Shown here one piece after another: positions 1,546 to 26,455 of a DNA stretch of 34,048 bases (the stretch's first letter is position 1; every line of letters begins with the position of its first letter). The position numbers and the translations under genes are program-made. Under the pieces are notes generated by a model. That model ran no database searches. It was not told the origin of the DNA and saw nothing but the letters and a program-made list of their open reading frames with translations. The DNA is taken from assembly GCA_009781815.1 (NCBI GenBank), contig WQVB01000001.1:1-34048 (forward strand), written 5' to 3'. This stretch comes from Defluviitaleaceae bacterium (GTDB taxonomy: Bacteria; Bacillota; Clostridia; Lachnospirales; WRAX01).

Positions 1546-1764
1546 CTCCTAGTCGTCATCCTATTTTATATGAAAAGACACAACCGTCTCATCGTCATTG
1601 CGGACTTGATCCGCAATCCCCCACCTTCATGACGCTACTTCGACTACTAATTGTCTCACAATTGAACCCTTCAGGAAGGAAGGGGATTGCGGATCAAGTC
1701 CGCAATGACGATCTCGAGTAATCGACAAATTAGAATGACGTGAGCACGGGATGACGACTAGGAG
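1546..1764. repeat. Composite palindromic repeat locus A: family F4 unit inside outer CTCCTAGTCGTCATCC / GGATGACGACTAGGAG arms
   Basis: Outer inverted arms lie at 1546-1561 and 1749-1764. The inner unit 1593-1710 has hairpins ATTGCGGA-CTTGA-TCCGCAAT (1597-1617) and its inverse (1686-1706). Confidence 0.85.
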
Positions 1765-1787
1765 GGCGAAATAGCATCAAAGCAAAA

Positions 1788-2459
1788 CTAGGCCTTCTTG
1801 CTACCGCCCTTAAAATTAAACCGCTTTTCTTCACCCGAAAGCAGCCATTTTATATTCTTACGGTGGTTAAACACACCTACAACAGCCAGCACCCAAGCAA
1901 TCGATATAATCGTGGGGTATTCAGTGTACAAGGTGGTGGTTACAATACCGAGAGATATAAAGCCCGTAGAAGATGCCAGCGATATATAGCGTGTAGCAAG
2001 CACAATAAGGATGCAAATGCCTAAAACAATAGCTAAGATTATAGGGTCAAACATTATTAAAATGCCGATGGCACAGGCCACCCCCTTGCCCCCGTTAAAC
2101 TTTAAAAAGAAAGGGAAGCAATGCCCCATAAACACGCCAACACCAACTAAAAGCCCTGGTATGTACTCTGCCGCAGATATATCCCATATGCGGCCGCTAT
2201 ACATAAAGGCGTTGATGATAATAATAGGCGTAATGGTTTTTAAAATATCAAAAACAAGCACACAAAGCCCAGGCCTTATGCCCATTACCCTATATACATT
2301 TGTTGCCCCTGCGTTGCCGCTGCCATGCTCTTTAATGTTTATTTTGCCAAAGACCTTGGCGATAAAATAGGCAGATTGCAAAGCCCCAAAAGGGTAGCCT
2401 ATTAAAACAAAAAATGCAATATACGCCCATGTGGGCAAATCATAAACCCATTGTGCCAT
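1788..2459 (-). CDS. plsY: Glycerol-3-phosphate acyltransferase PlsY
   Basis: Polytopic membrane protein of 223 aa with the HGSGNAGATNVYR motif. It lies directly downstream of der, a common Firmicute pairing. Confidence 0.9.
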   Translation of the reverse strand: MAQWVYDLPTWAYIAFFVLIGYPFGALQSAYFIAKVFGKINIKEHGSGNAGATNVYRVMGIRPGLCVLVFDILKTITPIIIINAFMYSGRIWDISAAEYIPGLLVGVGVFMGHCFPFFLKFNGGKGVACAIGILIMFDPIILAIVLGICILIVLATRYISLASSTGFISLGIVTTTLYTEYPTIISIAWVLAVVGVFNHRKNIKWLLSGEEKRFNFKGGSKKA

Positions 2460-2464
2460 ATCTT

Positions 2465-3775
2465 TTAGCTCCTATTCTTTACTATAAAATGTATTGGGGT
2501 GCCTTTAAAGCCAAAGTTTTGGCGTATTTGATTTTCCAAATATCGTCTATATGAAAAGTGCAAAAGCTCGCTGTTGTTAACAAAAAGCACAAAAGTTGGT
2601 GGCTTGATGGATACTTGGGTCATATAATAAACCTTTAACGACACACCTTTAACCGCTGGCGGCTGGTTTCTAGCCAGCGCCTCCACAAGCACCTCATTCA
2701 AAATGCCCGTTTGTATACGCAAGCAAGCGTTAGCATATACCATGTTTATTTGCTCAAACAAGTTAGGCACACGCTGCCCCGTTAGGGCTGAGATGTAAAG
2801 CTTTGGGGCATAGGGCATATATTTTAGCCTATCTTCAATATCTGCATCATACTTTTTCATGGTTTTGTTGTCTTTTTCAACCATGTCCCACTTATTTACT
2901 ACAATAATGGCGGCTTTGCCTTTTTCATGGGCTATGCCCGCTATTTTTGTGTCTTGGTCTGTTATGCCTTCTTCTGCGGAGATAACCATGATAGCAACAT
3001 CACAACGCTCCACAGCAGATACAGCTCGTATAAGGCTATATTTTTCAATATCTTCTTTTATCTTGCTACGGCGTCGTATACCTGCCGTGTCGATAAACAT
3101 ATACCTTTGTCCATCTTTTTCGTAGTATGTGTCTACCGCATCTCGTGTGGTGCCCGCCACGTCAGACACTATAACACGCTCTTCGCCTAATATACGGTTG
3201 ATGATGGAGGATTTGCCCACATTAGGCTTGCCTATAATGGCTATTTTGATTACATCCTCATCATCTTCATATGCTTTATCTTTAGGGAAAAAGTCGCAAA
3301 CAGCATCTAGCATATCCCCCAAGCCAAGCATATTTGCAGCAGACACGGGAAAGGGTTCGCCAAGGCCTAGAGAGTAAAACTCATAAGCATGGGCATCAAG
3401 CTTAATGTCATCAAGCTTGTTAACCACAAGCACCACAGGCTTGCCGCTGCGGCGGAGGATGTTTGCGGCCTCTATATCCCCCTCCGTCAGCCCTGCTTTG
3501 CCGTCCACCACAAAAATAACCACAGTTGCCGTTTCTATAGCAAGCTGAGCCTGCACACGAATTTGCTCGGTGATGGTGTCATGCTCCGAAAAGTCAAGGC
3601 CGCCAGTGTCCACCAGCAAAAAGTTGTGCTTAAGCCAGCTGGTTTGGGTGTATAGCCTATCTCGAGTAACCCCTGGGGTGTCTTCAACTATAGACAGCCT
3701 CTCCCCCGCTATTCTATTATATAAGGTGGATTTGCCCACATTAGGGCGACCCACAATCGCTACAATTGGTTGCAT
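2465..3775 (-). CDS. der: Ribosome-associated GTPase Der (EngA)
   Basis: Two tandem GTPase domains: GRPNVGKST/DTGG/NKLD and GKPNVGKSS/DTAG/NKWD, plus a KH-like C-terminus. 436 aa. Confidence 0.95.
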   Translation of the reverse strand: MQPIVAIVGRPNVGKSTLYNRIAGERLSIVEDTPGVTRDRLYTQTSWLKHNFLLVDTGGLDFSEHDTITEQIRVQAQLAIETATVVIFVVDGKAGLTEGDIEAANILRRSGKPVVLVVNKLDDIKLDAHAYEFYSLGLGEPFPVSAANMLGLGDMLDAVCDFFPKDKAYEDDEDVIKIAIIGKPNVGKSSIINRILGEERVIVSDVAGTTRDAVDTYYEKDGQRYMFIDTAGIRRRSKIKEDIEKYSLIRAVSAVERCDVAIMVISAEEGITDQDTKIAGIAHEKGKAAIIVVNKWDMVEKDNKTMKKYDADIEDRLKYMPYAPKLYISALTGQRVPNLFEQINMVYANACLRIQTGILNEVLVEALARNQPPAVKGVSLKVYYMTQVSIKPPTFVLFVNNSELLHFSYRRYLENQIRQNFGFKGTPIHFIVKNRS

Positions 3776-3809
3776 ATTTTCTCCTTATCTTTTTGAGCCT
3801 ACCCTACAC

Positions 3810-3989
3810 CCCTACCGTCATCCCGTGCCCTCACAGTTCGTCATCCTGAGCCCTTGGTCTTCCTGCTGTCGCAGGCAGAAGGGTAAGACTTGACTCAGGA
3901 TCTAATTGGAGAAGGGCAGGCTTAGTTGGGTGTCCACTATCATACATAGATCCTGAGTCAAGCTCAGGATGACGACTAGGAAGGGTGGG
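3810..3989. repeat. Composite repeat locus B: F1 unit (3840-3973) with a 38-nt F2 insertion in its left hairpin
   Basis: GTCATCCTGAG[CCCTTGGTCTTCCTGCTGTCGCAGGCAGAAGGGTAAGA]CTTGACTCAGGATC, then the conserved spacer, then GATCCTGAGTCAAGCTCAGGATGAC. It lies between the DUF512 stop and the der start. Confidence 0.85.
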
Positions 3990-4001
3990 ATGAGGTCATT
4001 A

Positions 4002-5318
4002 TTACGCCATCAGAGCCTCCACAAAATCCAACCCTTCCCCATCAACCACAATCACTTGCCTGCCTACTTTTCGGGACAACTCCTCCAATGTCATATCATC
4101 CAAAAACACATCTTCCCCAGCCTTCAAGCAAGACGAAGGCAAAAGCACCCTCTCCCCAAGCTCCCTATCAGCCAGCTGTTTTGCAATATCCTGCCCCGTC
4201 AAAAGCCCCGCCACAGTAATATGCCTGCCATAAAAATCATTTTTAATGGCCACCACATCAATATCTTGGCTTACCTTGCCCGCCAAATGGCGTATAAAGG
4301 GAGCAGCCGCCACCCCCGTGGCAATGGTTATTTTCTCACTTGGCACAAAAGCCTTGGTATGTGCCAGCTCCTCATAAAACTCATCCTTAAAAGCCCGCAA
4401 CATGCCTATGCCATTATCTATCTGCAAAAAGTCTTCATACTCATCACACTTAGGCAACGGATGCCCTGCTTTAAGGTAAAATTCATCAGCTATAAAAACA
4501 AATCTAGTGCCTATTTCTTTAAGCAACTTGCCCTGCCAGCTGGTTATTTGCTCTATAACGGCTTGGCAACTCTCTTTATCAAAAGGCTCAAGTTGCGTAA
4601 GCCCCTCTCTATGCTTTGTCAACCCCACAGGCACAACTGCCAGCGAGCAACCCGCCCCGCCTCGAGGTATATATCTGCTTAAATCATAAATAGTTTTATC
4701 AAGGTTTTCTCCATCGTTATAGCCTTTGCAAAGCACAATCTGAAGAGAAAGTGCAATACCTCCATCAGCCAAATCCTTTAAAAAATCAAGGGAACGCCCA
4801 GCTTGAGGGTTGCCCATCATCTCTACACGGAGCTTTGGGCAAGTAGCGTGAATTGATATATTAATAGGTGAGATGCGGTGCTTTAAAATCCGCTCCACAT
4901 CAGCCTTTGTCATGTTGGTAAGGGTGATATAGTTGCCATGCAAAAACGACAAGCGATAGTCATCATCTTTAAAATACAAGCTATCCCTCATGCCTAGGGG
5001 GTTTTGGTCAATAAAGCAAAACAGGCATTTGTTGCCGCAACCTCGCATATTGTCCATCAAATCATTTTCAAAAACAAGGCCAAGCTCTTCATCCTCGTCT
5101 TTGTCAATCTCTAACAGCCATTGCTCTCCATCAGCCTTTTCTACAAGCACCTCTAAATACTCTTCACGGCAACACAGGCGATAGTCAAATATGTCAACAA
5201 TAGCAATGTCGTTAATGGATATTAGCCAGTCTCCCGCCTCAATGCCCATCTCTTCTGCTATTGATTTTTTTTCGATTTTTAAAATTTCTTTTTTCACTTT
5301 TCTTTTTTCACTTTTCAT
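4002..5318 (-). CDS. DUF512 family protein (PDZ-like N-terminus plus radical-SAM-like Cys cluster)
   Basis: N-terminal SIAEEMGIEAGDWLISIND (PDZ-like) and GCGNKCLFCFIDQ. It sits upstream of der, as is usual for DUF512 genes in Clostridia. The start overlaps the pgeF 3' end by 11 nt. Confidence 0.75.
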   Translation of the reverse strand: MKSEKRKVKKEILKIEKKSIAEEMGIEAGDWLISINDIAIVDIFDYRLCCREEYLEVLVEKADGEQWLLEIDKDEDEELGLVFENDLMDNMRGCGNKCLFCFIDQNPLGMRDSLYFKDDDYRLSFLHGNYITLTNMTKADVERILKHRISPINISIHATCPKLRVEMMGNPQAGRSLDFLKDLADGGIALSLQIVLCKGYNDGENLDKTIYDLSRYIPRGGAGCSLAVVPVGLTKHREGLTQLEPFDKESCQAVIEQITSWQGKLLKEIGTRFVFIADEFYLKAGHPLPKCDEYEDFLQIDNGIGMLRAFKDEFYEELAHTKAFVPSEKITIATGVAAAPFIRHLAGKVSQDIDVVAIKNDFYGRHITVAGLLTGQDIAKQLADRELGERVLLPSSCLKAGEDVFLDDMTLEELSRKVGRQVIVVDGEGLDFVEALMA

Positions 5319-6096
5319 TTTTAATTTTTATAAAAGCCGCCATGCCACCACGAGCCATGCCATCCCTCCTATGGGAGAAAAACAGCTGGTCATTATCATA
5401 AGTGCATAGGCCTGCAATTTCTATATTTGCGTCTATAACGCCAGCTCTAAGCAAAGAGCTGCGGCATATTTGCCACAAATCAACATTAAGCTTGTCTTGC
5501 TCATTCCTACTATTATATATGAATTCTTCGGAAAAGGGAAGTTGTTTTTTAAAAATATTTGCAACATCTTGTCCAACCACAAAATTTTTAACGGAAATAG
5601 ACGGCCCAATGCCTACCAAAACATCTTTAGGGTCGCATCCATATTGCTTTATCATAGCGGCCACCACCTTGCCTGCCATATCCTCCGCAACGCCACGCCA
5701 CCCTGCATGTGCATTGGCGGCGATGTTCTTTTTAGGGTCATAAAAAAGCAAAGGCACACAGTCGGCATAATATGTGGTTAAGGCAATGCCCGTCTTGTTC
5801 GTCATCAACCCATCTGTATCGCCATATACCCCTGCCTCGTCTACTTTGGCGATATTTGTGCCATGCACCTGCTTGGTTTTTGCCATATTGCTCATATCAA
5901 AACCCAAAGCATCGCAAAGCTTTTGATAGTTGGCATCCACCGCATCTTTATCATCCCCTGTGGTGTAGGTAAGGTTTAAAGACGAATAAACCCCACTAGA
6001 CACGCCGCCCACACGGGTGGATATGCAATGGGGTATGCCTATGTCTGTTATATGCTTAAAGACAAAATATTTTAAGCCGTTTTTTTCTAAAATCAT
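5308..6096 (-). CDS. pgeF: YfiH/PgeF family (purine nucleoside phosphorylase / laccase-like) protein
   Basis: Motifs QVHG, DGLMT, YYADCVPL, AHAGWRGV. The start is moved to ATG 6096 (MILEKNG...), which has GGAGA 8 nt upstream. The 51 extra N-terminal residues in the track are a translation of repeat DNA. Confidence 0.85.
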   Translation of the reverse strand: MILEKNGLKYFVFKHITDIGIPHCISTRVGGVSSGVYSSLNLTYTTGDDKDAVDANYQKLCDALGFDMSNMAKTKQVHGTNIAKVDEAGVYGDTDGLMTNKTGIALTTYYADCVPLLFYDPKKNIAANAHAGWRGVAEDMAGKVVAAMIKQYGCDPKDVLVGIGPSISVKNFVVGQDVANIFKKQLPFSEEFIYNSRNEQDKLNVDLWQICRSSLLRAGVIDANIEIAGLCTYDNDQLFFSHRRDGMARGGMAAFIKIKNEK

Positions 6097-6130
6097 TATT
6101 TCATCTCCAATTGTCTTTGCGAGCTTAGCC

Positions 6131-6280
6131 CCACTAGTCATCCCAATTTGCTCATCTATCGTTGTAGGGAAGGGATTTATCCCTTCCGACATTATTGGAT
6201 TATCACTCACTAATCCTTCAGATAGGCAAGGCGGAGTGGATGAATCCACTCCCTACAAGGTTAAACTAAATTGACGTCAT
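6131..6280. repeat. Family F3 palindromic unit (core 6164-6256) with outer arms
   Basis: GTAGGGAAGGGATTTATCCCTTCCG, a 43-nt spacer, then CGGAGTGGATGAATCCACTCCCTAC. Outer GTCATCCCAATTTG / CAAGGTTAAACTAAATTGACGTCAT arms are related to those at 17018-17146, 18838-19032 and 23824-24010. Confidence 0.85.
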
Positions 6281-6380
6281 CCTGAGCTTGACTCAGGATC
6301 TATGTATGATAGTGGATGCCCAACTAAGCCTGTCCTGCTCCAATTAGATCCTGAGTCAAGCTCAGGATGACAACTAAGGA
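6276..6380. repeat. Family F1 palindromic unit (cleanest copy)
   Basis: GTCATCCTGAGCTTGACTCAGGATC, spacer CTATGTATGATAGTGGATGCCCAACTAAGCCTGTCCTGCTCCAATTAG, then GATCCTGAGTCAAGCTCAGGATGAC. It abuts the yraN stop codon. Confidence 0.9.
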
Positions 6381-6746
6381 TCATTCCCCAAAAACATTCT
6401 CTATATGCTCAATCTCCAAAACCTCTCGCCCAAAAACACTTAAAACATCAAAACGGCAGGCTGCATCCCACTTTTTCTCTTCATAAAGGTAGGCCTTTGC
6501 CGTCTTCACAATTCTTTTTTGCTTAGCACGGGTTATAGCCTCTAGCCCATCACCAAAGCCAGCACCACGGCGATATTTAACCTCTATAAAAACAATATAC
6601 TCCCCATCTTGGGCTATTATATCAATTTCTCCATCATATTTTTTGTAGTTTTGCTTTAAAATTTCATACCCCTTGCCTTGCAAGTAGCCAAGCACAACCG
6701 CCTCGCCATAATTGCCCTTATCTTTGTTAGCATCCACCTCAATCAC
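6381..6746 (-). CDS. yraN: YraN family (UPF0102) endonuclease-like protein
   Basis: 121 aa with the GEIDIIA....VFIEVKYR...G motif typical of UPF0102. Confidence 0.85.
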   Translation of the reverse strand: MIEVDANKDKGNYGEAVVLGYLQGKGYEILKQNYKKYDGEIDIIAQDGEYIVFIEVKYRRGAGFGDGLEAITRAKQKRIVKTAKAYLYEEKKWDAACRFDVLSVFGREVLEIEHIENVFGE

Positions 6747-6841
6747 CTCTATCTACATTGTATCAAACTTTTAGCTTAAGGGCTAGTCTTTTTTCTTGTG
6801 AAGGGGAGTATTATTTTAATAAGAAAAGGGAGTGGGGCTAG

Positions 6842-7957: not shown

Positions 7958-7986
7958 TGCTTCGTTTAGAGCCTTAATGGCATTTT

Positions 7987-8002
7987 TGTTTCACGTGGAA
8001 CT
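7987..8002. other. parS: parS centromere-like site 1
   Basis: TGTTTCACGTGGAACT matches 15/16 positions of the Firmicute parS consensus TGTTNCACGTGAAACA (read on the other strand). It lies 270 nt upstream of soj-spo0J. Confidence 0.85.
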
Positions 8003-8066
8003 TGAGCATAACCCCGTGTTTAATGTGGGTTGATGGTGAGCAAATGGTGGTGAGCATTTGCTAATT

Positions 8067-9042: not shown

Positions 9043-9043
9043 C

Positions 9044-9910: not shown

Positions 9911-9931
9911 CTCTCCGATCTTCCCCTCAAT

Positions 9932-10052
9932 CCCTCCTAAGTCGTCATCCCGTGCTTGACACGGGATCTATGTATGATAGTGGACAACCTCAACTAGGAC
10001 TGCCCTTCTCCAATTAGATCCCGTGTCAAGCACGGGATGACGACTTAGGGGA
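9932..10052. repeat. Family F1 unit, CCCGTG/CACGGG stem variant
   Basis: CCTAAGTCGTCATCCCGTGCTTGACACGGGATC, the conserved spacer, then GATCCCGTGTCAAGCACGGGATGACGACTTAGG. Both hairpins carry the compensated stem. Confidence 0.9.
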
Positions 10053-10136
10053 GTTTAATGCCTTTTAGTTTTACTACAAGCCTAATGACGAAAGGTAGAG
10101 CGTTAGTCGAAATGGCAAGAGGGGCTGGGATGGTAA

Positions 10137-10796
10137 TTAAGAAGTAGTCTGCCTACGCAACACATCCAAAGCCTTACGGACGGATGGAAAGGCAACTATT
10201 ATGAGGGTAATCGCAACCTCCGCATAGATATACAGCCCGTTATACGCCATAGAAAACAACAAATAGCTACTCCACCCCTCAGGAGGCCACACCCGCACCC
10301 AAAAAGCATAGCCAGCAATGGTGTGCATCAGCCACCTGCCTGTAGCGGCAACTAAAAAGCCCATAGCCAAGCCGTTTCTCCTCTTGCTAAAAAACCCCGA
10401 AAGGCCAAGCATGCCAAAGGCTAGGGGGTAATCTAAAAACAGCTGTAGAGGGTGGATTATGCTAGGGTTAGCAGCAAGGCGTAAAAGCCCGAAGGACACA
10501 CCCGCCACAAGGCCAATGCCTGGGCCAAACCAAATACCCACTATGCTCACAAAAAACATAGACAATGGCGACACAGACCCGCCAAGAGGCATGGAGAAAG
10601 GCCTAAATAACGACAAAATAAAGGCAAGAGCCAAAGCCATGCCTGCATATACAAGGGTTTTTGTGCTTAGATTTGCTTTTTTAAACATTTTGCCACTTAT
10701 AGCGATAAAGGTGATGGTTGCCAGCAGCAACATAGCAAAAGAGCCTAAATCCGTACGTAATAGCCTTTGCAGCTCTGCACCTATTTCATAAAACAT
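10137..10796 (-). CDS. thiT: Thiamine ECF-transporter substrate-binding (S) component ThiT
   Basis: 219 aa with 6 TM segments and the motifs GGSVS, LQLFLDYPLAFG and GLSGFF. A TPP riboswitch lies directly upstream. Confidence 0.8.
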   Translation of the reverse strand: MFYEIGAELQRLLRTDLGSFAMLLLATITFIAISGKMFKKANLSTKTLVYAGMALALAFILSLFRPFSMPLGGSVSPLSMFFVSIVGIWFGPGIGLVAGVSFGLLRLAANPSIIHPLQLFLDYPLAFGMLGLSGFFSKRRNGLAMGFLVAATGRWLMHTIAGYAFWVRVWPPEGWSSYLLFSMAYNGLYIYAEVAITLIIVAFPSVRKALDVLRRQTTS

Positions 10797-10945
10797 AAAA
10801 ACCCTCCTAAGCGTGATAATCAGCTAGGAGGTGAATTTAAAAAATAAAAAAGCACCAGCTTCCCTTCGGCAGCATTATCTGCATCAGGTTATAAGGGTAT
10901 TTCTCAGCCTCTACATAAGTAGCAGCACCCCTAGCTTTATAGTTG
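10797..10945 (-). promoter_or_regulatory. TPP (THI-box) riboswitch with expression platform
   Basis: Minus-strand RNA reads GCUAGGGGUGCUGC..GGCUGAGAAAUACCCUUAUAACCUGAUGCAGAUAAUGCUGCCGAAGGGAAG, which contains the conserved CUGAGA, ACCUGAU and AGGGAA blocks. The downstream CACCUCCUAGC can pair with the SD UAGGAGG of thiT. Confidence 0.9.
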
Positions 10946-11813: not shown

Positions 11814-11848
11814 CCGTCAAGTATGTAGGCGTGTACAAACCCAAGTGT

Positions 11849-12017
11849 CGTCATCCTGAGCCCTTGGTCTTCCTTCTGCCTGCGGCAGCAGGAAGACCAA
11901 GGGCTCAGGATGACGACTTAGGGAGGTTGAGAGGCTGCTTCGCTACAAGTCTATGCGGGCTTGATCCGCAATGACGATGTGAGTGCAAATCGGAATGACG
12001 TGAGCACGGGATGACGA
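11849..12017. repeat. Composite repeat locus E: 67-nt perfect long hairpin (F1 stem plus complete F2 palindrome), then F4 and F3-arm fragments
   Basis: CGTCATCCTGAGCCCTTGGTCTTCC (11849-11873) and GGAAGACCAAGGGCTCAGGATGACG (11891-11915) form a 25-bp perfect stem. ATGCGGGCTTGATCCGCAAT follows at 11953-11972. The locus lies between convergent gene ends. Confidence 0.85.
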
Positions 12018-12036
12018 CAGGTATAATAGACTTTGT

Positions 12037-12865: not shown

Positions 12866-12985
12866 CCCTCCCTACCGTCATCCTGAAGCTTGACTCAGGA
12901 TCTAATTGGAGAAGTAGACAGCCCTAATCAAGGTATGCACTACCCCACATAGATCCTGAGTCAAGCTCAGGATGACGGTAGGGGA
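12866..12985. repeat. Family F1 unit (reverse orientation)
   Basis: CCTACCGTCATCCTGAAGCTTGACTCAGGATC, spacer CTAATTGGAGAAG...CACATAG, then GATCCTGAGTCAAGCTCAGGATGACGGTAGG. Confidence 0.9.
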
Positions 12986-13065
12986 GATTCATGATGGCGA
13001 CTAGAGAGTCGCAATGATACTAGATAAGCATGTTAAGGGCAGCAAGCCAAGAAAGCCGAAAAGTA

Positions 13066-16950: not shown

Positions 16951-17017
16951 AATAGCCCTCCATATATTATTGTGATTTAGTAACTTTACTCGCCATGCTG
17001 CATCAAGCCCGTAGCAC

Positions 17018-17146
17018 GCCATTCCAATTTACCCATGTAGGGAATGGATTTATCCATTCCGTTTCATCTTGCTGAAGTATAGAAAGGTGCAGACCTAATA
17101 GCGGAATGGATAAATCCATTCCCTACAAAGAGAATTGGGATGACGT
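17018..17146. repeat. Family F3 unit with outer arms
   Basis: GTAGGGAATGGATTTATCCATTCCG (17037-17061), a 40-nt spacer, then CGGAATGGATAAATCCATTCCCTAC (17102-17126). The outer arm is ..GAATTGGGATGACG. Confidence 0.9.
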
Positions 17147-17166
17147 TTATGAGTATTCCCATCATT

Positions 17167-18822
17167 CTAATCCCATATTTGCACAAACTCGCCATCCACA
17201 TACCTAAAAATATGTCCTTCCCATTGCCCTGACCCTTCATAAGCTTGAGCTATAATCGTGCCATCTCCTCTTGATGAAACAGTGCTTTGGCTACTTAGAT
17301 CTCCCAAAAATGTGTTGCTAACAAACAAATTTTCCACAGGGCACCAAAGCCAATACAACCTTGGGGAATTTCTCATAGTGCCGCCCGTAAACGCAGCCAC
17401 TGCCAAGTCCAAATAACCATCATCATTATAATCCGCAAAGTGAATATCAAAGGTTGGAAGCCTATGCACAGCCCTAGGCGGTTGAGGTGGTGAAAAATGC
17501 GTTTCGTGCAAATTTGTGCGTATATATCGCATTTCTTGTATCAGCTCATCATTGTTATTATAAATGCTAATATTCATTATACGAGGGTTACCGCCCTCTC
17601 TCGTGTCTTCTATTGCCCAAGAATCTACATCGATAAATATAAAGGCACTTCTATCATTTTGGTTCAACCACACAACATTTCTTTCTTGTTGTCTAAGCTC
17701 CACAAACTTGCCATCTCTATAGCCAAAGTGATGGGATACTTGAACACTCCCAGCACTCCCGCTCCAGCTATAGCTCCAAAGTTGAGCATCCTCATCAATC
17801 CAAACCTCCACGCTTCTAAGCAATTCCGTTAGTTGATCGTTAAAAACAAATTGTCCAGCTTCCTTATCCCAAAGCCAATGGTAGTGCTGCCCCCAGCCAG
17901 GGTATCTTTCGCTATGAAAAATGCTAAATAGCCTCATATCCAAATAGCCATTAAAAGTAAGGTCAACAAAAGACAATTGCATCCAATCATAATCAATAGG
18001 GTTAAAATGGGTTGAATATTGTCGCAAACCCGATATTTCTTGCACTAAATGCCCCTCATCATCATAAATCAAAATAGTTACGTCAAACTCTTCTTCTCCA
18101 TAAGTAGATTCGCCAGCAATAGCTATGCGGTGAAAAGTTAAATATATAGCCTCTTCTAAAGGTGCATTGGGGTTTATTTGTATGCGGTCTATAAATGTAC
18201 GTTTTCCTATGATAATATCATCAAATTTGCTTAGCTCAAAATATACAAGTGTATCACCTTTACCAAATATACTAAAAAACTCATCCTCCGTGGCAATATC
18301 CATGCCGATACTCTTGATGAAAGTATAACCATCAAAGGTAATGATGCTACCATGTCCATTGCGAACTAATCTATCGCCCTCTAGGGTGATTTTTTGATAA
18401 TACAAATTTCCTGAATGTCCATCCCACGCTATAAGGCTATAATCACATTCGAGAGATTTAGCAACGCTAGGCACTATCCTTCCATGATGCAAATTCCACG
18501 CTACACTTAAATAGTCCTCAACCTCAATCGCAATCACTTGACCATCTCTAAAGGCATAAACCGCCTCATAAAAATCTCCAAATGGAATCTGACCAAAAAC
18601 AATCAGCTCTGGCGTGTCTGTTTGCCCAAAATCATGCAGCACAAAAAACAAGCTATCGCTTTTTTCTTGATACTCTCGCAAAAAAGCCGCATACGCCCCT
18701 TGCCACGTGGCGTTTTCGACGCCCTCGTCTTCTATGGCAGGATAATCCTCAACAACGCCACCACAAGCCACAAGAAAAATAGCCATAACCAATATGCAAA
18801 AGCTGATAACCCTCTTGTTCAT
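17167..18822 (-). CDS. Lipoprotein of unknown function with an internally duplicated FG-GAP/VCBS-like module
   Basis: The start is set at ATG 18822. The signal peptide MNKRVISFCILVMAIFLVAC has a lipobox. Two ~120-aa modules share IYDDEGHLVQEI/IYNNNDELIQEM, DLTFNGYLDM/DYNDDGYLDL and HWLWDKEAGQFVFN/YWLWCPVENLFVSN. Confidence 0.6.
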   Translation of the reverse strand: MNKRVISFCILVMAIFLVACGGVVEDYPAIEDEGVENATWQGAYAAFLREYQEKSDSLFFVLHDFGQTDTPELIVFGQIPFGDFYEAVYAFRDGQVIAIEVEDYLSVAWNLHHGRIVPSVAKSLECDYSLIAWDGHSGNLYYQKITLEGDRLVRNGHGSIITFDGYTFIKSIGMDIATEDEFFSIFGKGDTLVYFELSKFDDIIIGKRTFIDRIQINPNAPLEEAIYLTFHRIAIAGESTYGEEEFDVTILIYDDEGHLVQEISGLRQYSTHFNPIDYDWMQLSFVDLTFNGYLDMRLFSIFHSERYPGWGQHYHWLWDKEAGQFVFNDQLTELLRSVEVWIDEDAQLWSYSWSGSAGSVQVSHHFGYRDGKFVELRQQERNVVWLNQNDRSAFIFIDVDSWAIEDTREGGNPRIMNISIYNNNDELIQEMRYIRTNLHETHFSPPQPPRAVHRLPTFDIHFADYNDDGYLDLAVAAFTGGTMRNSPRLYWLWCPVENLFVSNTFLGDLSSQSTVSSRGDGTIIAQAYEGSGQWEGHIFRYVDGEFVQIWD

Positions 18823-18837
18823 GCTATATACCCCCAA

Positions 18838-19032
18838 CTGTCATCCCGTGTCAAGCACTCAAGCACGGAACACGTCAATCTAATTTGGAATTTTTGCCAC
18901 TGTAGGAAACGCATTTATGCGTTCCGCATTGCCTTGTTGAAGGATAAAAAGGTGCAAATTCAATAGCGGAATGGATAAATCCATTCCCTACAAGGTCAAA
19001 TTAGATTGGCGTGAGTACGTGATGAGGAGCGA
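18838..19032. repeat. Composite repeat locus H: F3 unit (18902-18991) nested in CGTCAATCTAATTTGG / CAAATTAGATTGGCG arms, themselves inside a split CCCGTG-type hairpin
   Basis: The left F3 hairpin is GGAAACGCATTTATGCGTTCC (compensated stem). The right one is GGAATGGATAAATCCATTCC. Confidence 0.85.
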
Positions 19033-19886: not shown

Positions 19887-20074
19887 ATTGCGGATCAAGT
19901 CAGCTAATAAACCTGTTGTTGAGTCGACCCCCTAAGTCGTCATCCTGAGCCCTTGGTCTTCCTGCTGCCGCAGGCAGAAGGGTAAGACTTGACTCAGGAT
20001 CTAATTGGAGGAGGACAAGCCTAGTTGGGTATGCACTATCATACATAGATCCCGTGTCAAGCATGGGATGACGA
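19887..20074. repeat. Composite repeat locus I: F4 half-hairpin remnant plus F1 unit (19939-20072) with the same 38-nt F2 insertion as locus B
   Basis: GTCATCCTGAG[CCCTTGGTCTTCCTGCTGCCGCAGGCAGAAGGGTAAGA]CTTGACTCAGGATC ... GATCCCGTGTCAAGCATGGGATGAC. The track ORF 19900-20097 is a translation of this repeat. Confidence 0.85.
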
Positions 20075-20089
20075 TGTAATACGATAGTG

Positions 20090-21691: not shown

Positions 21692-21706
21692 TAGACCTCC
21701 ATCTAT

Positions 21707-22633
21707 CTAAACTGGGCTTAAAATGCCCAACAGCATAGTCTCCATACAAAGCAAAAAATTGCAATTGGTTTTTAACTTCTCTTCCGTGTCTATTATGATT
21801 TTTATTTTTGCCAAAATATTAGACGCACCTTGCCCATTGCGGGCATGCTCCACCATCTGGCCTCTATAGTGGTTTTTTAAAACCTCTAAAACATCAAATA
21901 TATTGTCTTTATATTGCTCCATATCTTTAGCTGTTTTAAAAATTTCCACTATATCTTTTTCGCCGCCTTTGGCCACATCAACCACCCAATTATACATTTG
22001 GATGAAATCTTCATCTATAGCCATTTTTATAGCTTGCCCCATATAGCCCTTTGACAAACTTATGGCCGCTTTGGCTTTTTCACCATCTGCACCCATTTTT
22101 TCAAGATGCTCTCTCACAACCTCACTCCCAAGGGGGGCTGTTTGATATTTTATACAACGAGACAAAACAGTAGGCAAAAAGCTAGCTATATTTTCCGTTA
22201 GCAACAAAAATATAGTGTGCTTTGGGCCTTCTTCAAGGGTCAAAAGCATTGCGTTTTGGGCGGCGGGGGTCATTTTGTGTGCATCTTGTATAATATATAC
22301 ACGATATTTGCCGTGGGGGGATATAGACAAACCCTCAAGCACCTGCTCACGCACCTCACCCACACCAAGGGTGGCTTTTTCGCTTTTGATATATACAATA
22401 TCGGGGTTGTTGCCGCTGTCAAATGTTACACAAGGCTTGCAAGCACCACAAGCTAAGCCCTCTTTGGGCTTTGCACAAACAATGCTTTTGGCAAAGGCAT
22501 TGGCTAATGTTTTTTTGCCGCTACCTTTAGAGCCCGCTATAATGTAAGAATGATGCAAGCGGTTTAAGCCTATAGATTGCACCATAGACCGCTTCACCAT
22601 CTCATTACCTAATATGTGGTCAAAGCTATGCAT
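21707..22633 (-). CDS. holB: DNA polymerase III delta' subunit HolB
   Basis: HSYIIAGSKGSGKKT, the Zn module CGACKPC, and TVLSRC (SRC motif). 308 aa. Confidence 0.9.
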   Translation of the reverse strand: MHSFDHILGNEMVKRSMVQSIGLNRLHHSYIIAGSKGSGKKTLANAFAKSIVCAKPKEGLACGACKPCVTFDSGNNPDIVYIKSEKATLGVGEVREQVLEGLSISPHGKYRVYIIQDAHKMTPAAQNAMLLTLEEGPKHTIFLLLTENIASFLPTVLSRCIKYQTAPLGSEVVREHLEKMGADGEKAKAAISLSKGYMGQAIKMAIDEDFIQMYNWVVDVAKGGEKDIVEIFKTAKDMEQYKDNIFDVLEVLKNHYRGQMVEHARNGQGASNILAKIKIIIDTEEKLKTNCNFLLCMETMLLGILSPV

Positions 22634-22962
22634 TACACTCTCTTAAACTCAGCCACATCAAGCACAAAAATCGTAGCTCCGCCAACAACAACCTCAACTG
22701 GGTATGGCACATAGTTTTCAGCAGTTGAAAGGTGGGCAGAGTTAATAGACGTTATCTGCTTTCTCGATTTACACTTCTTTTCAATAACGCTTACAAGCTC
22801 TTGCACACGGTCATCCTCCACACCACAAATCATAGTAGTGTTGCCTGAACGTAAAAAGCCGCCTGTAGACGCAAGCTTGGTTATTTTAAAGCCCTCTTCA
22901 CTTAAAATATCTATAATTTGAAAAGCATCCTCATCGTGCATAATAGCCATTACTAATTTCAT
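22633..22962 (-). CDS. darA: PII-like cyclic-di-AMP receptor DarA (YaaQ/PstA family)
   Basis: 109 aa, of the MKLVMAI..D.DA......L...GF..TKL.STGGFLR.GNTT type. It lies between tmk and holB, as in Bacillus. Confidence 0.85.
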   Translation of the reverse strand: MKLVMAIMHDEDAFQIIDILSEEGFKITKLASTGGFLRSGNTTMICGVEDDRVQELVSVIEKKCKSRKQITSINSAHLSTAENYVPYPVEVVVGGATIFVLDVAEFKRV

Positions 22963-23040
22963 AATAACTTCCTCCTTGTTATATGTCGTTGTAAACCTTT
23001 AACTTCCATCATTAGATTCCTTGGCAAAGCAGCACTCCAC

Positions 23041-23147
23041 TATCGTCATCCTGAGCTTGACTCAGGATCTAATTAGAGAAGGGCACTCCTAATTAGGGTA
23101 CGCACTATCCCACATAGATCCTGAGTCAAGCTCAGGATGACGAGTAG
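23041..23147. repeat. Family F1 unit overlapping the 3' end of tmk
   Basis: GTCATCCTGAGCTTGACTCAGGATC, spacer CTAATTAGAGAAGGGCACTCC...CCACATAG, then GATCCTGAGTCAAGCTCAGGATGAC. The tmk stop codon (23089-23091) lies in the spacer. Confidence 0.9.
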
Positions 23148-23775
23148 GTAATAGCCCATCTATATATTTTTTTATTTCCTCATGTATTTTATCCACTGCC
23201 ATCATAGCATCAACGGTTACTATCTTATCGTCTTCTTCTGCCAGCTTTTTATACCCCAGCCACACCTTTTCGTGATATTCGATACCCTTTTCTTCTATTC
23301 TATCAAGGGCTTCTTGCTCCACTTTTCTTTTTAAGCCCTCTTTAGGGTTAATGTCTAAAAAGATGGTGGCATCAGGCGTCAAGCCTTCTGTTGCAAAGTT
23401 GTTAATATATTTTAAATTATCAACATCAAGCTGCCCTGCATAGCCTTGATAAGCAAAGGTAGACATTGCAAACCTATCACACAATATAATATAACCCTTG
23501 CTAAGGTGAGGCTTAATAAAATCCGCAATAAGTTGAGCTCTGGCAGCAAAGTATAAAAGGCTCTCTGTCTCGGCTGTCATGGCGGCGTTTTTTTTGTCTT
23601 TTAAAATGCCTCGTATAGCTTCAGATATAGGGTTGCCCCCAGGCTCACGAGTAACAATAACATTATGACCAAGGCTTGATAGATATTCAAAAAGCATCTG
23701 TATTTGAGTGCTTTTGCCAGCACCCTCGCCACCTTCAAAAACTATAAAGATTTTAAGCCCCCCTCTCAAAGACAT
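23089..23775 (-). CDS. tmk: Thymidylate kinase; last ~18 codons are encoded by repeat DNA
   Basis: P-loop FEGGEGAGKST, DRF motif (CDRFAMST) and the LID region. The start is tentatively ATG 23775 (MSLRGGLKIF...). The C-terminal RHPELDSGSMWDSAYPN is a translation of the F1 unit. Confidence 0.85.
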   Translation of the reverse strand: MSLRGGLKIFIVFEGGEGAGKSTQIQMLFEYLSSLGHNVIVTREPGGNPISEAIRGILKDKKNAAMTAETESLLYFAARAQLIADFIKPHLSKGYIILCDRFAMSTFAYQGYAGQLDVDNLKYINNFATEGLTPDATIFLDINPKEGLKRKVEQEALDRIEEKGIEYHEKVWLGYKKLAEEDDKIVTVDAMMAVDKIHEEIKKYIDGLLPTRHPELDSGSMWDSAYPN

Positions 23776-23787
23776 ATACATAGCTCG

Positions 23788-23816
23788 ATTATACCACAAC
23801 AAAAATATTTTGTCTA
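23788..23816 (-). promoter_or_regulatory. Putative sigma-A promoter of the tmk-yaaQ-holB cluster
   Basis: Minus strand reads TAGACA (23816-23811), 17 nt, then TGgTATAAT (-10 at 23793-23788). It ends only about 7-13 nt before the candidate ATGs. Confidence 0.4.
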
Positions 23817-23823
23817 CATATCC

Positions 23824-24152
23824 ACCCCTAAGTCGTCATCCTCATCTCACGTCAATCTAATTTGGAACTTTTACCATTGTAGGGAACCCTGAATCAAGTT
23901 CAGGGCAGGCTCCTTTATGCGTTCCGCCTTGTCTCTCTGAAGGATAAAAAGGTGCAAACCCAATAACGGAATGGATAAATCCATTCCCTACAAGGTTAAA
24001 TTAGATCGACATTTCCCGTGCTTGACATGAGATTTATGTGGGTTAGTTCATATCCTAATTAAGGCTGCCCTTCCCTAATTAGATCCTGAGTCAAGCTCAG
24101 GATGACGACTTGGAAGGGTTGAGTGGCGTTTCGCTACAAGTCTAATGACGTG
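23824..24152. repeat. Composite repeat locus K: F3 unit (23879-23991) carrying an inserted CCCTGAA-TCAAG-TTCAGGG hairpin, a degenerate F1 unit (24012-24106), and a GCTACAAGTCTAATGACG fragment
   Basis: Direct reading. Outer arms are CCTAAGTCGTCATCC (23827-) and GGATGACGACTTGG (-24113). Confidence 0.85.
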
Positions 24153-24214
24153 CTTAAATAATCGTCAAATGACGGCTTGACATAAACAAGCAATAAAATT
24201 TTTAAAATTACATA

Positions 24215-24272
24215 TTGACAATGTAAAGATACCGTGCTATAATCTTTACATCATAAAGTTTACATTGTAAAG
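24215..24272 (+). promoter_or_regulatory. Consensus sigma-A promoter with three TetR-type operator half-palindromes
   Basis: TTGACA (24215-24220), 17 nt, TATAAT (24238-24243). The motif TTTACA-N3-TAAAG recurs as ACAATGTAAAG (24218-24228), CTTTACATCATAAAG (24244-24258) and TTTACATTGTAAAG (24259-24272). Confidence 0.7.
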
Positions 24273-24286
24273 TTAGGGGGATAAAT

Positions 24287-24868
24287 ATGAGCAATAAAAC
24301 ATATCATCACGGTGATTTACGCACAGCCATGATAGAAAAAGGTCTTGAAGCAATAAGTGAAGGTGGCGTTAAAAACCTATCACTACGAAAGGTGGCGTCT
24401 GCCTGCGGGGTAAGCCACGCTGCACCCTATAGCCATTTTAAAAACAAAAAAGAGCTGCTCGGGGCAATAGAAAGCCACATAACAGCCCAGTTTACCCACA
24501 TGCTTAAAGAGGCAGCAAAGGGCAAAAGCAACACGCCAGAAGCACTTTTAGAAATAGGCTGTGCCTATGTGTTGTTCTTCATCAAAAACCCTCAATATTT
24601 TGAGTTTATATTTGACCATTCAGAGATATCCGTAGGGGGTGGCCATGTATATGAGCCTTATGATTTTTTTAAAGATTTTATGGAAAAAACACTTGATAAA
24701 CTTGGGCATTCAAAAGAAGATTATTCTAAAACTTTAATAGCTCAATGGGCTATGATGCAAGGCTTAGTCCACATTTTGACTAGGACAACCATAAAAAATG
24801 GCCCCCCTTTAGAAGAGATTGTTAAAAGCCTTTTATCAAAAAACTACATGATTTTCCCGCAAGGCTAG
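24287..24868 (+). CDS. TetR/AcrR-family transcriptional repressor
   Basis: N-terminal HTH LSLRKVASACGVSHAAPYSHFKNK. 193 aa, directly upstream of an MFS transporter. Confidence 0.9.
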   Translation: MSNKTYHHGDLRTAMIEKGLEAISEGGVKNLSLRKVASACGVSHAAPYSHFKNKKELLGAIESHITAQFTHMLKEAAKGKSNTPEALLEIGCAYVLFFIKNPQYFEFIFDHSEISVGGGHVYEPYDFFKDFMEKTLDKLGHSKEDYSKTLIAQWAMMQGLVHILTRTTIKNGPPLEEIVKSLLSKNYMIFPQG

Positions 24869-24883
24869 AAGGAGGTTTACATT

Positions 24884-26125
24884 ATGCTTAAATTATTTAA
24901 AGAAAATAAAATGTTTCGTGTGTTTTTGGCCTATCAAGCCTTTTCAGGCCTAGGTCAGGGTATGTTTCAACTTTTTATATTGCTCTCAGTTCATCTTATC
25001 TATCAAAACCCTATATACACAGGCATTGCGGGCTTTTTAATGGCAGGCCCCAGCATCCTCTCTTTTGTTATAGGGCCTATTGTGGATAGAAAAAACAAAG
25101 TAACTATAATGCGTTTAACCTCAGTTTTAGAGTTTTTATCGGTAGCTCTTTTAGCCTTTGTACCTTTTCAAGAAAATTTTGGAGTTTGGTTTATGTTTAT
25201 GGTTATCCTCATCTTTTCTCTATCGTCTCTTTTTGAGGTGCCATCATCCAACGCCCTGCTCCCCCAAATTGTTCATGAAGATGATATAATGAGGGCAAAC
25301 TCCCTCGTTAACATCGCAGCCTTAACAGGCGGCATTGGCATAGCTACACTGCTGTTTGTATCTTTAAGAGGAGGAGAGGTAGATTTCAGCCTTCTATTCG
25401 GCTTTTCATCAGCCTTTATAGCCATAGCCTTTATCTTTTCACTATTTTTGAGAGACTCCTTGGCAAAAAAGCCACAAAGCCCACAAAAGCCACCTAAAAA
25501 CTATCTAAAAGATTTAAAAGAAGGTGCAAAGTTTCTCAAACAAAACATCTTGCTATACATAGTTATAGCCGCCGTGGCAAAAAACTTTGTTATACAAATA
25601 GCATCGGTAAATACGCCTATGTTCGCCGAATATCACGTAGGTGCAGATGGTTATATCTTGCTCACTTTAATGGGCTTAATAGGCGGCATTGCAGCCTCAT
25701 ATTTTGTAGGCATTTTTGGCAGCAGGCTTAAGGTGGGCAAGCTTATCTTTGTTTTGTTTGCCATCGCTGGTATGGTGCGTGTGGTTTTTGCCCTTGTTTT
25801 GCCCCATCATTATATAGGCGGTCTTGCCGTTTTGGTTTTATACGCAGCCCTTGGTGGCTCTCTCAACATTGTTTTTCAATCCCTACGCCAAAAGCTCCCT
25901 CCAAAAGACATGGTCGGCCGCATAGAGACAATCTCCACAACCCTTTCTGCCGTGTTTCTCGCCATCGGTGCTTTGATAGGTGGCTTTTTAGGTAATGCTT
26001 TGCCCGTTGTAGACCACATCTTTATATACCAAGGCATAGCCTACACAGTTATCGGCATTATCGTCATCCTCGTGCCAAAAATAAGAAAGCTGCCTAAAAT
26101 GAATGATATTCAAAAAGAAGATTAA
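24884..26125 (+). CDS. MFS transporter (probable efflux pump)
   Basis: 413 aa with about 12 TM segments. GGAGG lies 8 nt upstream. It is translationally close to the TetR gene. Confidence 0.8.
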   Translation: MLKLFKENKMFRVFLAYQAFSGLGQGMFQLFILLSVHLIYQNPIYTGIAGFLMAGPSILSFVIGPIVDRKNKVTIMRLTSVLEFLSVALLAFVPFQENFGVWFMFMVILIFSLSSLFEVPSSNALLPQIVHEDDIMRANSLVNIAALTGGIGIATLLFVSLRGGEVDFSLLFGFSSAFIAIAFIFSLFLRDSLAKKPQSPQKPPKNYLKDLKEGAKFLKQNILLYIVIAAVAKNFVIQIASVNTPMFAEYHVGADGYILLTLMGLIGGIAASYFVGIFGSRLKVGKLIFVLFAIAGMVRVVFALVLPHHYIGGLAVLVLYAALGGSLNIVFQSLRQKLPPKDMVGRIETISTTLSAVFLAIGALIGGFLGNALPVVDHIFIYQGIAYTVIGIIVILVPKIRKLPKMNDIQKED

Positions 26126-26170
26126 TGCTCACCTTATTTAATCTTTATTGTTAGCAGATAACCCTAATTT

Positions 26171-26455
26171 GTCATCAGACCTGTAGCGAAACGACCCTAA
26201 GTCGTCATCCTGAGCTTGACTCAGGATCTAACTGGAGAAGGACGCAGCCCTAAAATATGGCATGCACTACCCCATGTAGATCCTGAGTCAAGCTCAGGAT
26301 GACGTAAGGGGGCACAGTTTTGCTACAGGTCTATTGCGGGCCCTTGGTTGAGCTTGGTTTTAAGCGAAACTTGATCCGCAATCCCCTTTCTAGTCTGAAT
26401 AATTCAGGAAGGAAGGGGATCCTGAATCAAACCTTGCCAAGGGTTCAGGATGACA
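26171..26455. repeat. Composite repeat locus L (last one in the window): F1 unit (26204-26303) inside AGACCTGTAGCGAAAC / GTTTTGCTACAGGTCT arms, then F4 hairpin with a 30-nt insertion (26333-26382), then CCTGAA/TTCAGG hairpin with a 12-nt palindromic insertion
   Basis: Direct reading of inverted repeats. Details are in the findings. Confidence 0.85.

Follow-up and report, generated by a model that had tools for sequence, protein, structure and literature searches.

Hairpin-doublet repeats of the CGTC- and GTAG-tagged REP superfamilies in a Defluviitaleaceae-like Clostridia genome

The stretch of DNA analyzed here (contig WQVB01000001.1, 34,048 nucleotides; called the window below) has its intergenic gaps filled with real, dispersed hairpin-doublet repeats of two already described superfamilies. 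Prokaryotic repetitive extragenic palindromes (REPs) were split into these GTAG- and CGTC-tagged superfamilies in an earlier survey (Di Nocera, De Gregorio and Rocco, 2013; BMC Genomics 14:522, PMC3733652). The first-pass annotation of the window named four repeat families, F1 to F4. F1, F4 and the F2-bearing variants are inverted doublets of CGTC-tagged REPs, and F3 is a doublet of GTAG-tagged REPs. The hairpins show structural constraint and dispersal, vary in presence among relatives and are nested in one another. For the main families, the known partner is the GIY-YIG nuclease Ssn and not a tyrosine transposase. We give a probability of about 0.6 to the reading that REPs of two known superfamilies stand side by side in one Clostridia (Defluviitaleaceae-like) genome, where the reading includes the mechanism, by Ssn and by a REP-associated tyrosine transposase (RAYT), that may mobilise them. 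The repeats thus add a member and a host lineage to repeat kinds that were already known, and do not make up a system of a new kind.

Repeat loci and their dispersal

Repeats are present at each of the twelve loci where they had been annotated, as seen in a self-comparison of the window, in direct reading of the sequence and in an enumeration of perfect hairpins. The F1 hairpin (GTCATCCYGWGCTTGACWCRGGATC) gives 12 matches at three mismatches or fewer versus 0 in 100 dinucleotide shuffles of the window, the F3 hairpin (GTAGGGAATGGATTTATCCATTCCG) gives 6 versus 0 expected, and the heptamer CGTCATY occurs 32 times versus 3.66 ± 1.87 expected and points into the repeat block in nearly all cases. 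The repeat density is about one hairpin per kb. The annotated summed length of ~2.3 kb is arithmetically correct, and 12 of ~15 gaps longer than 50 nt are occupied between 1.5 and 26.5 kb. A search of the window with Rfam at gathering thresholds gave a thiamine pyrophosphate (TPP) riboswitch only and no match for the repeats, a search of the window for tRNA and tmRNA gave none, and a literature search with the repeat sequence string returned unrelated primers only.

The division into four families has to be redrawn: the repeats exist, yet they reduce to two tagged superfamilies and nested variants. The doublet architecture that was recognised in them, resembling REP doublets forming hairpins (REPINs) or bacterial interspersed mosaic elements (BIMEs), is confirmed by the inverted doublets, the tagged hairpins and the conserved spacer. 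The coordinates of all eight F1 doublets are correct, although the left arm at 24012 is degenerate, and so are those of the four F3 doublets, except that the left arm at 23879 is a different, untagged hairpin (23887-23905). For F4, the arms at 1594-1617 and 1686-1709 are intact, and at 26333-26382 there is an F4-type arm whose loop carries an insertion; at 11953 and at 19887 a single arm is present, in degenerate form. F2, which was taken as a hairpin-spacer-hairpin family of its own, is a CCTTGG...CCAAGG palindrome nested in CGTC elements. At 3851-3888 and 19950-19987 it occupies a CGTC hairpin loop, and at 11849-11916 it has an outer half-stem on either side. The outer-arm extension CCCTAAGT is found, but as one among several C-rich flanks (CCCTAAGT, CCCCTACC, CCCTTCAC and CCCTGCC).

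The repeats also occur outside the window. When metagenomes were scanned with a pattern of arm plus spacer that is specific to the F1 of this lineage, 18 further contigs (55 kb in total, from other JGI metagenomes) with F1 doublets emerged, and none of them has a stretch of at least 250 nt in common with the window. Their genes are spore-former housekeeping genes, for example those of SpoIVA and ribosomal protein L19. In addition to the 8 F1 doublets in 25 kb of the window, 17 more are found on these contigs, which also hold F3 and F4 doublets that lie outside the selection pattern (F3 in L087, L100 and L103). Confinement of the motifs to the window, which the first-pass annotation had named as a refuting result, is thereby contradicted. 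These data also bear on the option that the repeats are an artefact of assembly or a chimera, which could be raised because the source is a short-read metagenome assembly. We consider it highly improbable, since a second, independent contig of the same sample (L001) matches 13.8 kb of the window at 99.96% identity without an indel, since the doublets recur in the other metagenomes, and since isolate genomes, among them those of Kangiella and Vibrio, have the hairpin as well.

As L001 is free of indels relative to the window, it is uninformative on the presence or absence of single repeats. Syntenic relatives, which were found via their YaaT/PSP1 protein (~74% identical to that of the window), show such differences. 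The gap between tmk and darA is 190 nt in the window versus 39 nt in the relative L107, and the gap between the methyltransferase gene and rsmI is 225 nt versus 41 nt in the relatives. Between rsmI and purL there are ~14 nt in L107, a CGTC heterodimer in the relative L106, and 2 kb in the window, made of an F3 doublet, a 556-aa open reading frame (ORF) and another F3 doublet. The repeat-carrying junctions of the window thus measure 190-2000 nt versus gaps of 14-41 nt in syntenic relatives.

Structure of the hairpins and doublets

In the intact F1 and F4 arms the order is (C/T)GTC, an 8-bp stem beginning with AT, the loop CTTGA, the complementary stem and a C. The stems (ATCCTGAG, ATCCCGTG and ATTGCGGA), all of 8 bp, differ from each other by compensated pairs. 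An F3 arm consists of GTAG, an 8-bp stem and a 4-nt loop (GGAATGGA-TTTA-TCCATTCC), with the compensated stem variants GGAAGGGA, GGAGTGGA and GAAACGCA. The doublets are inverted, with the tags pointing outward and mirror-image ends on opposite strands, and the F1 spacer begins with TAATTGGAGAAGG and ends with CACTATCATACATA. Folded as single-stranded DNA, the doublets favour one long arm-to-arm hairpin of -31 to -48 kcal/mol, with z-scores of -10 to -17.

F1 has two stem classes, CCTGAG/CTCAGG and CCCGTG/CACGGG, which are two compensated base pairs apart. When 22 F1 doublets were aligned from CGTC to GACG, both arms belonged to the same stem class in 20 of them, and the mean spacer identity was 78% (81% within a stem class and 76% between classes). 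In 44 distinct CGTC hairpins, a set pre-selected for at least 6 of 8 pairs, 97.4% of the cells pair and double changes are seen at 7 of the 8 pairs; the covariation score is 0.678 versus 0.206 in shuffled and at most 0.146 in slid controls. In the hairpin alignment G2, T3, C4 and A5 are invariant and T25 and C26 are conserved at 90% or more. The 3' tail reads CTA in the F1 arms of the window and CCC in both intact F4 arms (1594-1617, 1686-1709); across all loci the tails include CTC, CCA, CTA and CCC, with the first base C conserved. Some F1 copies have GTAG on the complementary strand at the arm's inner side (..CATGTAG-ATCCTGAG..), as at 26276-26300 of the window and in L087 (254), L088 (356), L090 (536) and L094 (423), and one hairpin is thereby CGTC-tagged on one strand and GTAG-tagged on the other; most copies have ATAG or TTAG at this place.

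The outer flanks are C-rich and mirror-symmetric (CCCTAAGT ... ACTTAGGG), and they are inverted without any direct duplication. A classical terminal-inverted-repeat type of miniature inverted-repeat transposable element (MITE), mobilised by a DDE transposase, was considered and is ruled out by these inverted flanks and by the lack of a direct-repeat target-site duplication.

Composites are common. An F3 doublet is joined to an F1 doublet at 6164-6372 and the identical junction type recurs in L087. Some doublets are enclosed by an inverted repeat (CACGTCAATCTAATTTGG / CCAAATTAGATTGACGTG) that itself lies inside CGTC half-hairpins (1546-1764, 18838-19032), and the nested scheme is also seen in the relative L106 (5830-6065). 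An outer inverted repeat, CACG(T/C)CAATCTAATTTGG ... CCAAATTA...GGCGTG, is common to the window (1720-1760, 18871-19029, 23848-24012) and to the same segment of L106; it encloses GTAG doublets in the former and a CGTC heterodimer in the latter. By self-comparison some copies are 95% identical over 86 nt, 100% over 52 nt or 91% over 138 nt.

The GIY-YIG nuclease Ssn

A scan with the F1 hairpin over one genome per GTDB species gave at least 85 loci. Among the matches listed are Melainabacteria, Gammaproteobacteria (Marinagarivorans, Kangiella and Vibrio), Alphaproteobacteria/Rickettsiales, Saccharibacteria and other Patescibacteria, Bacteroidota, Elusimicrobia, Spirochaetes, Campylobacterota, Cloacimonadota, Thermotogota and Actinomycetota. 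At least 10 phyla have the 25-nt hairpin in exact form, with either the CCCGTG or the CCTGAG stem, while the Ssn-like proteins that go with it are 42-58% identical across these phyla, which suggests either horizontal spread or a very tight constraint between the enzyme and its site. At most of the listed loci a further CGTC hairpin forms a pair with it, and the stems of the two often differ.

When the ORFs at these loci were clustered all-against-all without bias, the top recurrent neighbour was a GIY-YIG protein of ~100 aa (Pfam PF01541), found at 10 or more loci in at least six genomes of different phyla, with 42-58% identity across phyla. Its gene lies exactly between inverted F1-type CGTC hairpins in L073, L055 and L027, and in L077 it stands with a different CGTC stem that is outside the search pattern. 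The protein of L035 has 61% identity to the product of a GIY-YIG gene in N. gonorrhoeae that has NTS motifs on its flanks. This hairpin-gene-hairpin arrangement was seen in genomes other than that of the window, and the family call is that of Pfam. In Marinagarivorans (L073 755-1115; L055 829-1182) the Ssn-like ORF runs through the downstream hairpin, which encodes its last ~11 residues (GSRVKHGMTDE), and there are several copies per genome, some of them pseudogenes with internal stops (L055, L014).

The link between the GIY-YIG gene and the hairpin is not a new finding, as it has already been published by Chenal et al. (2025; Nat Commun 16:2388, PMC11893778), who named the family Ssn. It was shown that the NTS hairpin (CGTCATTCCCGCGMAVGCGGGAATCYRG) has to be single-stranded DNA for SsnA of N. 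meningitidis to bind it, and that the enzyme cuts a few nucleotides upstream of it, where the three bases that lie upstream of its palindrome are critical for cleavage and the C just after it for binding (Chenal et al., 2025). The ssnA gene, which encodes a cd10448-type GIY-YIG protein of ~95 aa, sits between two such hairpins, and related motifs (SRMs) lie nearby in 71% of ssnA homologs (Chenal et al., 2025). The bases critical for SsnA, GTC before the stem and C after it, are found in every intact F1 and F4 arm of the window.

These associations bear on the choice between Ssn and the agent named in the first-pass annotation, in which all four families were REPINs or MITEs derived from IS200/IS605 and mobilised by an HUH/Y1 transposase (RAYT or TnpA) that acts on single-stranded hairpins. 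Some features favour such an enzyme: the doublets resemble REPINs in their architecture, the GTAG tag of F3 is the one on which the E. coli RAYT acts by recognition and cleavage (Di Nocera et al., 2013), RAYT group 1 was reported in Clostridia (PMC5581495), and mobilisation of CGTC REPs by non-dedicated transposases was allowed for (Di Nocera et al., 2013). However, the tag of F1 and F4, the majority families, is CGTC instead of GTAG, the 2013 survey saw no RAYT or IS200 gene with CGTC REPs on its flanks (Di Nocera et al., 2013), the gene that is recurrently flanked among the 85 or more loci is the GIY-YIG gene, and the unit ends are symmetric, unlike the IS200/IS605 type with its asymmetric left and right ends on one strand. 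For all four families together we therefore regard this explanation as improbable; it does not suit the dominant F1 and F4, and an IS200/IS605-derived MITE origin is contradicted by the ends, while HUH/Y1 mobilisation is plausible for the GTAG-tagged F3 alone, whose class has RAYT-type HUH/Y1 enzymes as its established partners. One IS200-like ORF only is found among the matches listed (~0.6 Mb of loci), namely an IS200/IS605-type transposase ORF (L066 2270-2785; NCBIfam NF033573, 58.6 bits) in a Bacteroidales metagenome-assembled genome (MAG), ~850 nt from an F1-type CGTC hairpin.

Proposed mechanism and its alternatives

The CGTC doublets may be gene-less derivatives of hairpin-ssnA-hairpin units. 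An Ssn-family GIY-YIG nuclease, with its gene elsewhere in the genome, would bind each hairpin while the hairpin DNA is transiently single-stranded, and the nick would fall a few nucleotides upstream of the CGTC tag. Such nicks could seed the copying or insertion of doublets into intergenic DNA and into the loops of other hairpins, and the GTAG doublets (F3) would be handled likewise by a RAYT tyrosine transposase. Most of the inserted copies, downstream of genes, are probably tolerated passengers. We infer an Ssn partner in this genome.

A stronger proposal is that the spacer-conserved CGTC doublets still transpose, as non-autonomous elements for which an Ssn-type GIY-YIG nuclease is the driver in trans. 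It is based on the matched stem classes, on the insertions into loops and into the 3' end of tmk, and on the short gaps in the relatives, and we hold it as a tentative possibility that is less probable than its negation. If it is true, a single-domain GIY-YIG enzyme of ~95 aa would be a true transposase of single-strand hairpin elements, with a transposition chemistry not yet described, and the question of how CGTC REPs spread, raised in 2013 by Di Nocera et al., would be answered.

Several points weigh against the Ssn/RAYT mechanism. To our knowledge, transposition by Ssn has never been demonstrated. Chenal et al. (2025) do no more than raise an insertion-sequence-like origin, and as SsnA cuts the tagged strand only, a doublet with its tags outward gets one cut per strand, whereas IS200/IS605 elements are cut twice on one strand. 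In Neisseria, a change of the stem sequence with the structure kept abolished the activity (Chenal et al., 2025), and the two stem classes seen here would therefore need two enzymes or one laxer enzyme. The tail is CTA and not the consensus CCA. The SRM pattern (HGTCWYN(0-2)YYVSBRHN(0-5)WNVSBRGN(0-2)RNCYNB, hand-built from 29 genomes) occurs in the window at 9943-9971 only, versus a mean of 0.04 in shuffles. The CCCGTG class largely fits this pattern, and the arm 10017-10041 misses it at the last position only; a single arm is recovered because the CCTGAG stem falls outside the pattern at stem positions, and the literal pattern is not a usable membership test for the CCTGAG stem class. As the relatives share only ~74% YaaT/PSP1 identity with the window, loss of repeats in them is not formally separable from gain in the window.

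A further such point is that, with six-frame translations included at E up to 10, we found no Ssn-like or Y1-like ORF or pseudogene in ~135 kb, comprising the window, the 18 contigs and 3 relatives, in agreement with the annotation, which had no mobilising gene in view. This result is also what would be seen if the doublets were orphan relics, spread in an ancestor whose dedicated enzyme has since been lost and now decaying. Such a fate was proposed for CGTC REPs by Di Nocera et al. (2013), and it accords with the many degenerate arms and half-sites and with the mean spacer identity of only 78%. Yet the copies that match each other at 91-100%, the matched arms in 20 of the 22 doublets, and the presence of an SsnA homolog in 81% of the genomes with more than 200 SRMs (Chenal et al., 2025) make loss of the enzyme an unlikely account, on a level with that by HUH/Y1 enzymes.

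Another hypothesis is that the repeats are no longer mobile and are kept by selection on the host, as stabilisers or attenuators at mRNA 3' ends, as restriction marks on single-stranded DNA, or as supercoiling or gyrase sites. In the version with restriction marks, they would modulate the recombination of incoming DNA, as the NTS of Neisseria do. Their location fits a function of this type, 11 of the 12 loci being downstream of at least one gene and one lying in a divergent promoter region, and so do the compensatory changes that maintain the stems, the lack of an indel over 13.8 kb of L001 from the same population, the F3 doublets that bracket the ORF at 17167-18837, and the lowered transformation by an NTS-gene-NTS arrangement in Neisseria (Chenal et al., 2025). 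On the other hand, no T-run follows the hairpins, and they are thus not intrinsic terminators; copies are inserted in each other's loops and in the end of tmk; occupancy varies between relatives; and a 50-fold variation of copy number with a patchy distribution was taken to argue against one general function (Di Nocera et al., 2013). Host selection is therefore an improbable explanation, though slightly less so than the orphan relics, and two REP superfamilies mobilised by Ssn and RAYT remain our preferred reading.

Description of the loci

The first locus (1546-1764) is a nested composite whose outer termini are CGTC half-hairpins (CGTCATCC at 1554-1561 and AGCACGGGATGACGAC at 1743-1758). Its inner part is an F4-type CGTC REP doublet (1593-1710) with the arms 1594-1617 (+) and 1686-1709 (-), the stem ATTGCGGA, the loop CTTGA and a 68-nt spacer; the single-strand DNA fold has -48.2 kcal/mol (z = -15). 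At 3810-3989 a CGTC half-site (3816-3828) is followed by an F1 CGTC doublet (3839-3974), where the loop of the left arm holds a 37-nt F2 palindrome (~3851-3888) and the right arm is at 3949-3973 (-). The locus 6131-6380 joins an F3 GTAG doublet (6164-6256), a heterodimer with the stems GGAAGGGA and GGAGTGGA, to an F1 CGTC doublet (6275-6372) with the arms 6276-6300 (+) and 6347-6371 (-). An F1 CGTC doublet of the CCCGTG stem class occupies 9929-10056, with arms at 9944-9968 (+) and 10017-10041 (-), the flanks CCTAAGT and ACTTAGG, and a fold of -48 kcal/mol (z = -14).

The locus 11847-12018 begins with a perfect 68-nt palindrome (11849-11916), in which CGTC termini and outer half-stems (GTCATCCTGAGC ... 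GCTCAGGATGAC) surround an F2 core, followed by a degenerate F4 arm (11949-11976, -) and a half-site (11986-12018); it includes the self-comparison match of 100% over 52 nt and folds with -42.1 kcal/mol (z = -17). At 12866-12986 there is an F1 CGTC doublet (12876-12977) whose left arm has a 1-nt insertion and whose right arm lies at 12952-12976 (-). Two F3 GTAG doublets follow. The first (17015-17147) is a homodimer with the arms 17037-17061 (+) and 17102-17126 (-), an extended outer inverted repeat and a fold of -31.4 kcal/mol (z = -11.5). The second (18902-18991, in the locus 18838-19032) has the left stem GAAACGCA and the right stem GGAATGGA and lies within an inverted repeat (CACGTCAATCTAATTTGG / CAAATTAGATTGGCGTG), itself within degenerate CGTC half-hairpins.

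At 19887-20079 a degenerate F4 arm (19887-19905) precedes an F1 doublet (19938-20073) whose left-arm loop holds an F2 insertion, and the copy is 91% identical over 138 nt to that at 3838-3975. The F1 CGTC doublet at 23035-23148, with the arms 23045-23069 (+) and 23117-23141 (-), overlaps the 3' end of tmk. The composite in the divergent promoter region (23824-24152) contains a CGTC half-site (23834), an outer inverted repeat (23848-23878), an F3-type doublet (23879-23991) in which an untagged hairpin replaces the left arm, and an F1 doublet (24012-24107) with a degenerate left arm. The last locus (26171-26455) consists of an F1 doublet (26203-26304) and a second CGTC doublet (~26331-26455) with CCTTGG-bounded insertions in both hairpin loops, an F4-type left arm and the right arm GATCCTGAA...TTCAGGATGAC.

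Host and gene context

The genes of the window are housekeeping genes of spore-forming Bacillota (bofA, a yaaL-like gene, plsY, der, parAB, thiT, purL, rsmI, yaaT/PSP1, holB, darA and tmk), and the YaaT proteins nearest to that of the window (70-77% identity) have the NCBI name 'MAG: Defluviitaleaceae bacterium'. The window itself matches an ENA metagenome contig. The host is a Defluviitaleaceae-like spore-former, in line with the Clostridia-like genome described before. The TPP riboswitch (Rfam RF00059, 71 bits; 10844-10942, -) lies upstream of a gene for a ThiT-type thiamine transporter (10137-10796), and the gap between the two is free of repeats.

The last 19 codons of tmk and its stop codon (23089-23148) are encoded by an F1 doublet. 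As the homology to the tmk of a relative ends at residue 218 of 237 (~nt 23149), the doublet supplies the C-terminus of the protein, a tail which resembles the in-frame palindromic elements of Rickettsia. The ORF of 556 aa (17167-18837), which has F3 doublets on both sides, gave a weak FG-GAP match only. It is absent between rsmI and purL in the relatives L106 and L107, and the segment 17018-19032 looks like a repeat-flanked gene insertion. A gene of the UPF0102/YraN nuclease family (6381-6746, -) directly upstream of an F1 doublet was considered as a partner and rejected, since only one of its sides has a repeat; that the two are neighbours is probably a coincidence.

The last 7.5 kb of the window (26500-34048) are without repeats and encode a polysaccharide deacetylase, a DUF2200 protein, small ORFs, TnpV (28591-28932) and a 1665-aa helicase-nuclease with DUF4011, AAA_11, AAA_12 and MTES_1575 domains (29011-34008). 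This region may be a recently acquired island, which fits reports of REPs confined to core regions of the genome.

Significance

Both tagged REP superfamilies are extended by these data to a lineage of spore-forming Clostridia, while the earlier surveys consulted covered mostly Gram-negative hosts. What was shown for Ssn is that it cuts. On how the CGTC/SRM hairpins multiply, the lineage offers clean material, namely compact doublets with a recognisable spacer, two stem classes that co-vary, insertions nested in each other and relatives whose gaps at the same junctions are short, and it has some value as a natural system for asking whether Ssn mobilises its hairpins. For annotation, the repeats explain spurious ORF extensions, such as the C-terminus of tmk, and inflated intergenic regions.

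Comparison with known systems

In MITEs derived from IS200/IS605 the subterminal hairpins of the left and right ends are distinct and lie on one strand, and a Y1 TnpA is required. The units described here are, as these MITEs (e.g. Nezha) are, short, hairpin-bearing, non-coding and dispersed; they differ in being symmetric, with the tags outward on opposite strands, and no Y1 ORF accompanies them in DNA of the same lineage. F3 is closer to the GTAG REPs and REPINs of the RAYT system (Nunvar 2010; Bertels and Rainey 2011; Ton-Hoang 2012), with which it shares the GTAG tag, the imperfect palindrome, the inverted doublets with a spacer of ~40 nt and the folding of a single strand into one long hairpin. 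The differences are that no RAYT is in view and that F3 has a further outer inverted repeat of ~35 nt (CACGTCAATCTAATTTGG...), which in the relative L106 encloses a CGTC doublet.

F1 and F4 belong to the same hairpin class as the NTS and SRMs of the Ssn system (CGTCAT, palindrome, C). They differ in the CCTGAG stem, which is outside the SRM pattern, and in that no ssnA was seen in ~135 kb; natural transformation is not known for the host of the window. The spacer-conserved doublets resemble propagating units, a point not analyzed in Chenal et al. (2025).

F1 and F4 also match the CGTC REPs as described by Di Nocera et al. (2013). These have stems of 8-9 bp beginning with AT, loops of 4-5 nt and a 3-nt tail with the consensus CCA; the tag varies to TGTC or CCTC, the first two stem positions are A-T and T-A pairs, and most copies form inverted (HH) dimers with conserved spacers. 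The class includes dRS3 of Neisseria and RPE-4 and RPE-6 of Rickettsia, and the hosts surveyed were Proteobacteria, Chlorobi, Bacteroidetes, Spirochaetes and Thermotogae, with no Firmicutes in either superfamily (Di Nocera et al., 2013). Relative to this description, the repeats of the window differ in the Bacillota/Clostridia host, in the tail CTA instead of CCA, and in the extensive nesting, with small palindromes inside hairpin loops. F1 and F4 correspond to the subtype with an 8-bp stem and a 5-nt loop (CGTC-2), which was described as mostly heterodimeric, whereas homodimers predominate in the lineage of the window. What they share with CGTC REPs is the unpaired (C/T)GTC tag, the 8-bp stem starting with AT, the 5-nt loop and the 3-nt tail, the inverted dimers with conserved spacers, the intergenic location mostly downstream of genes, the occasional contribution to the 3' end of a gene, and the coexistence with GTAG REPs.

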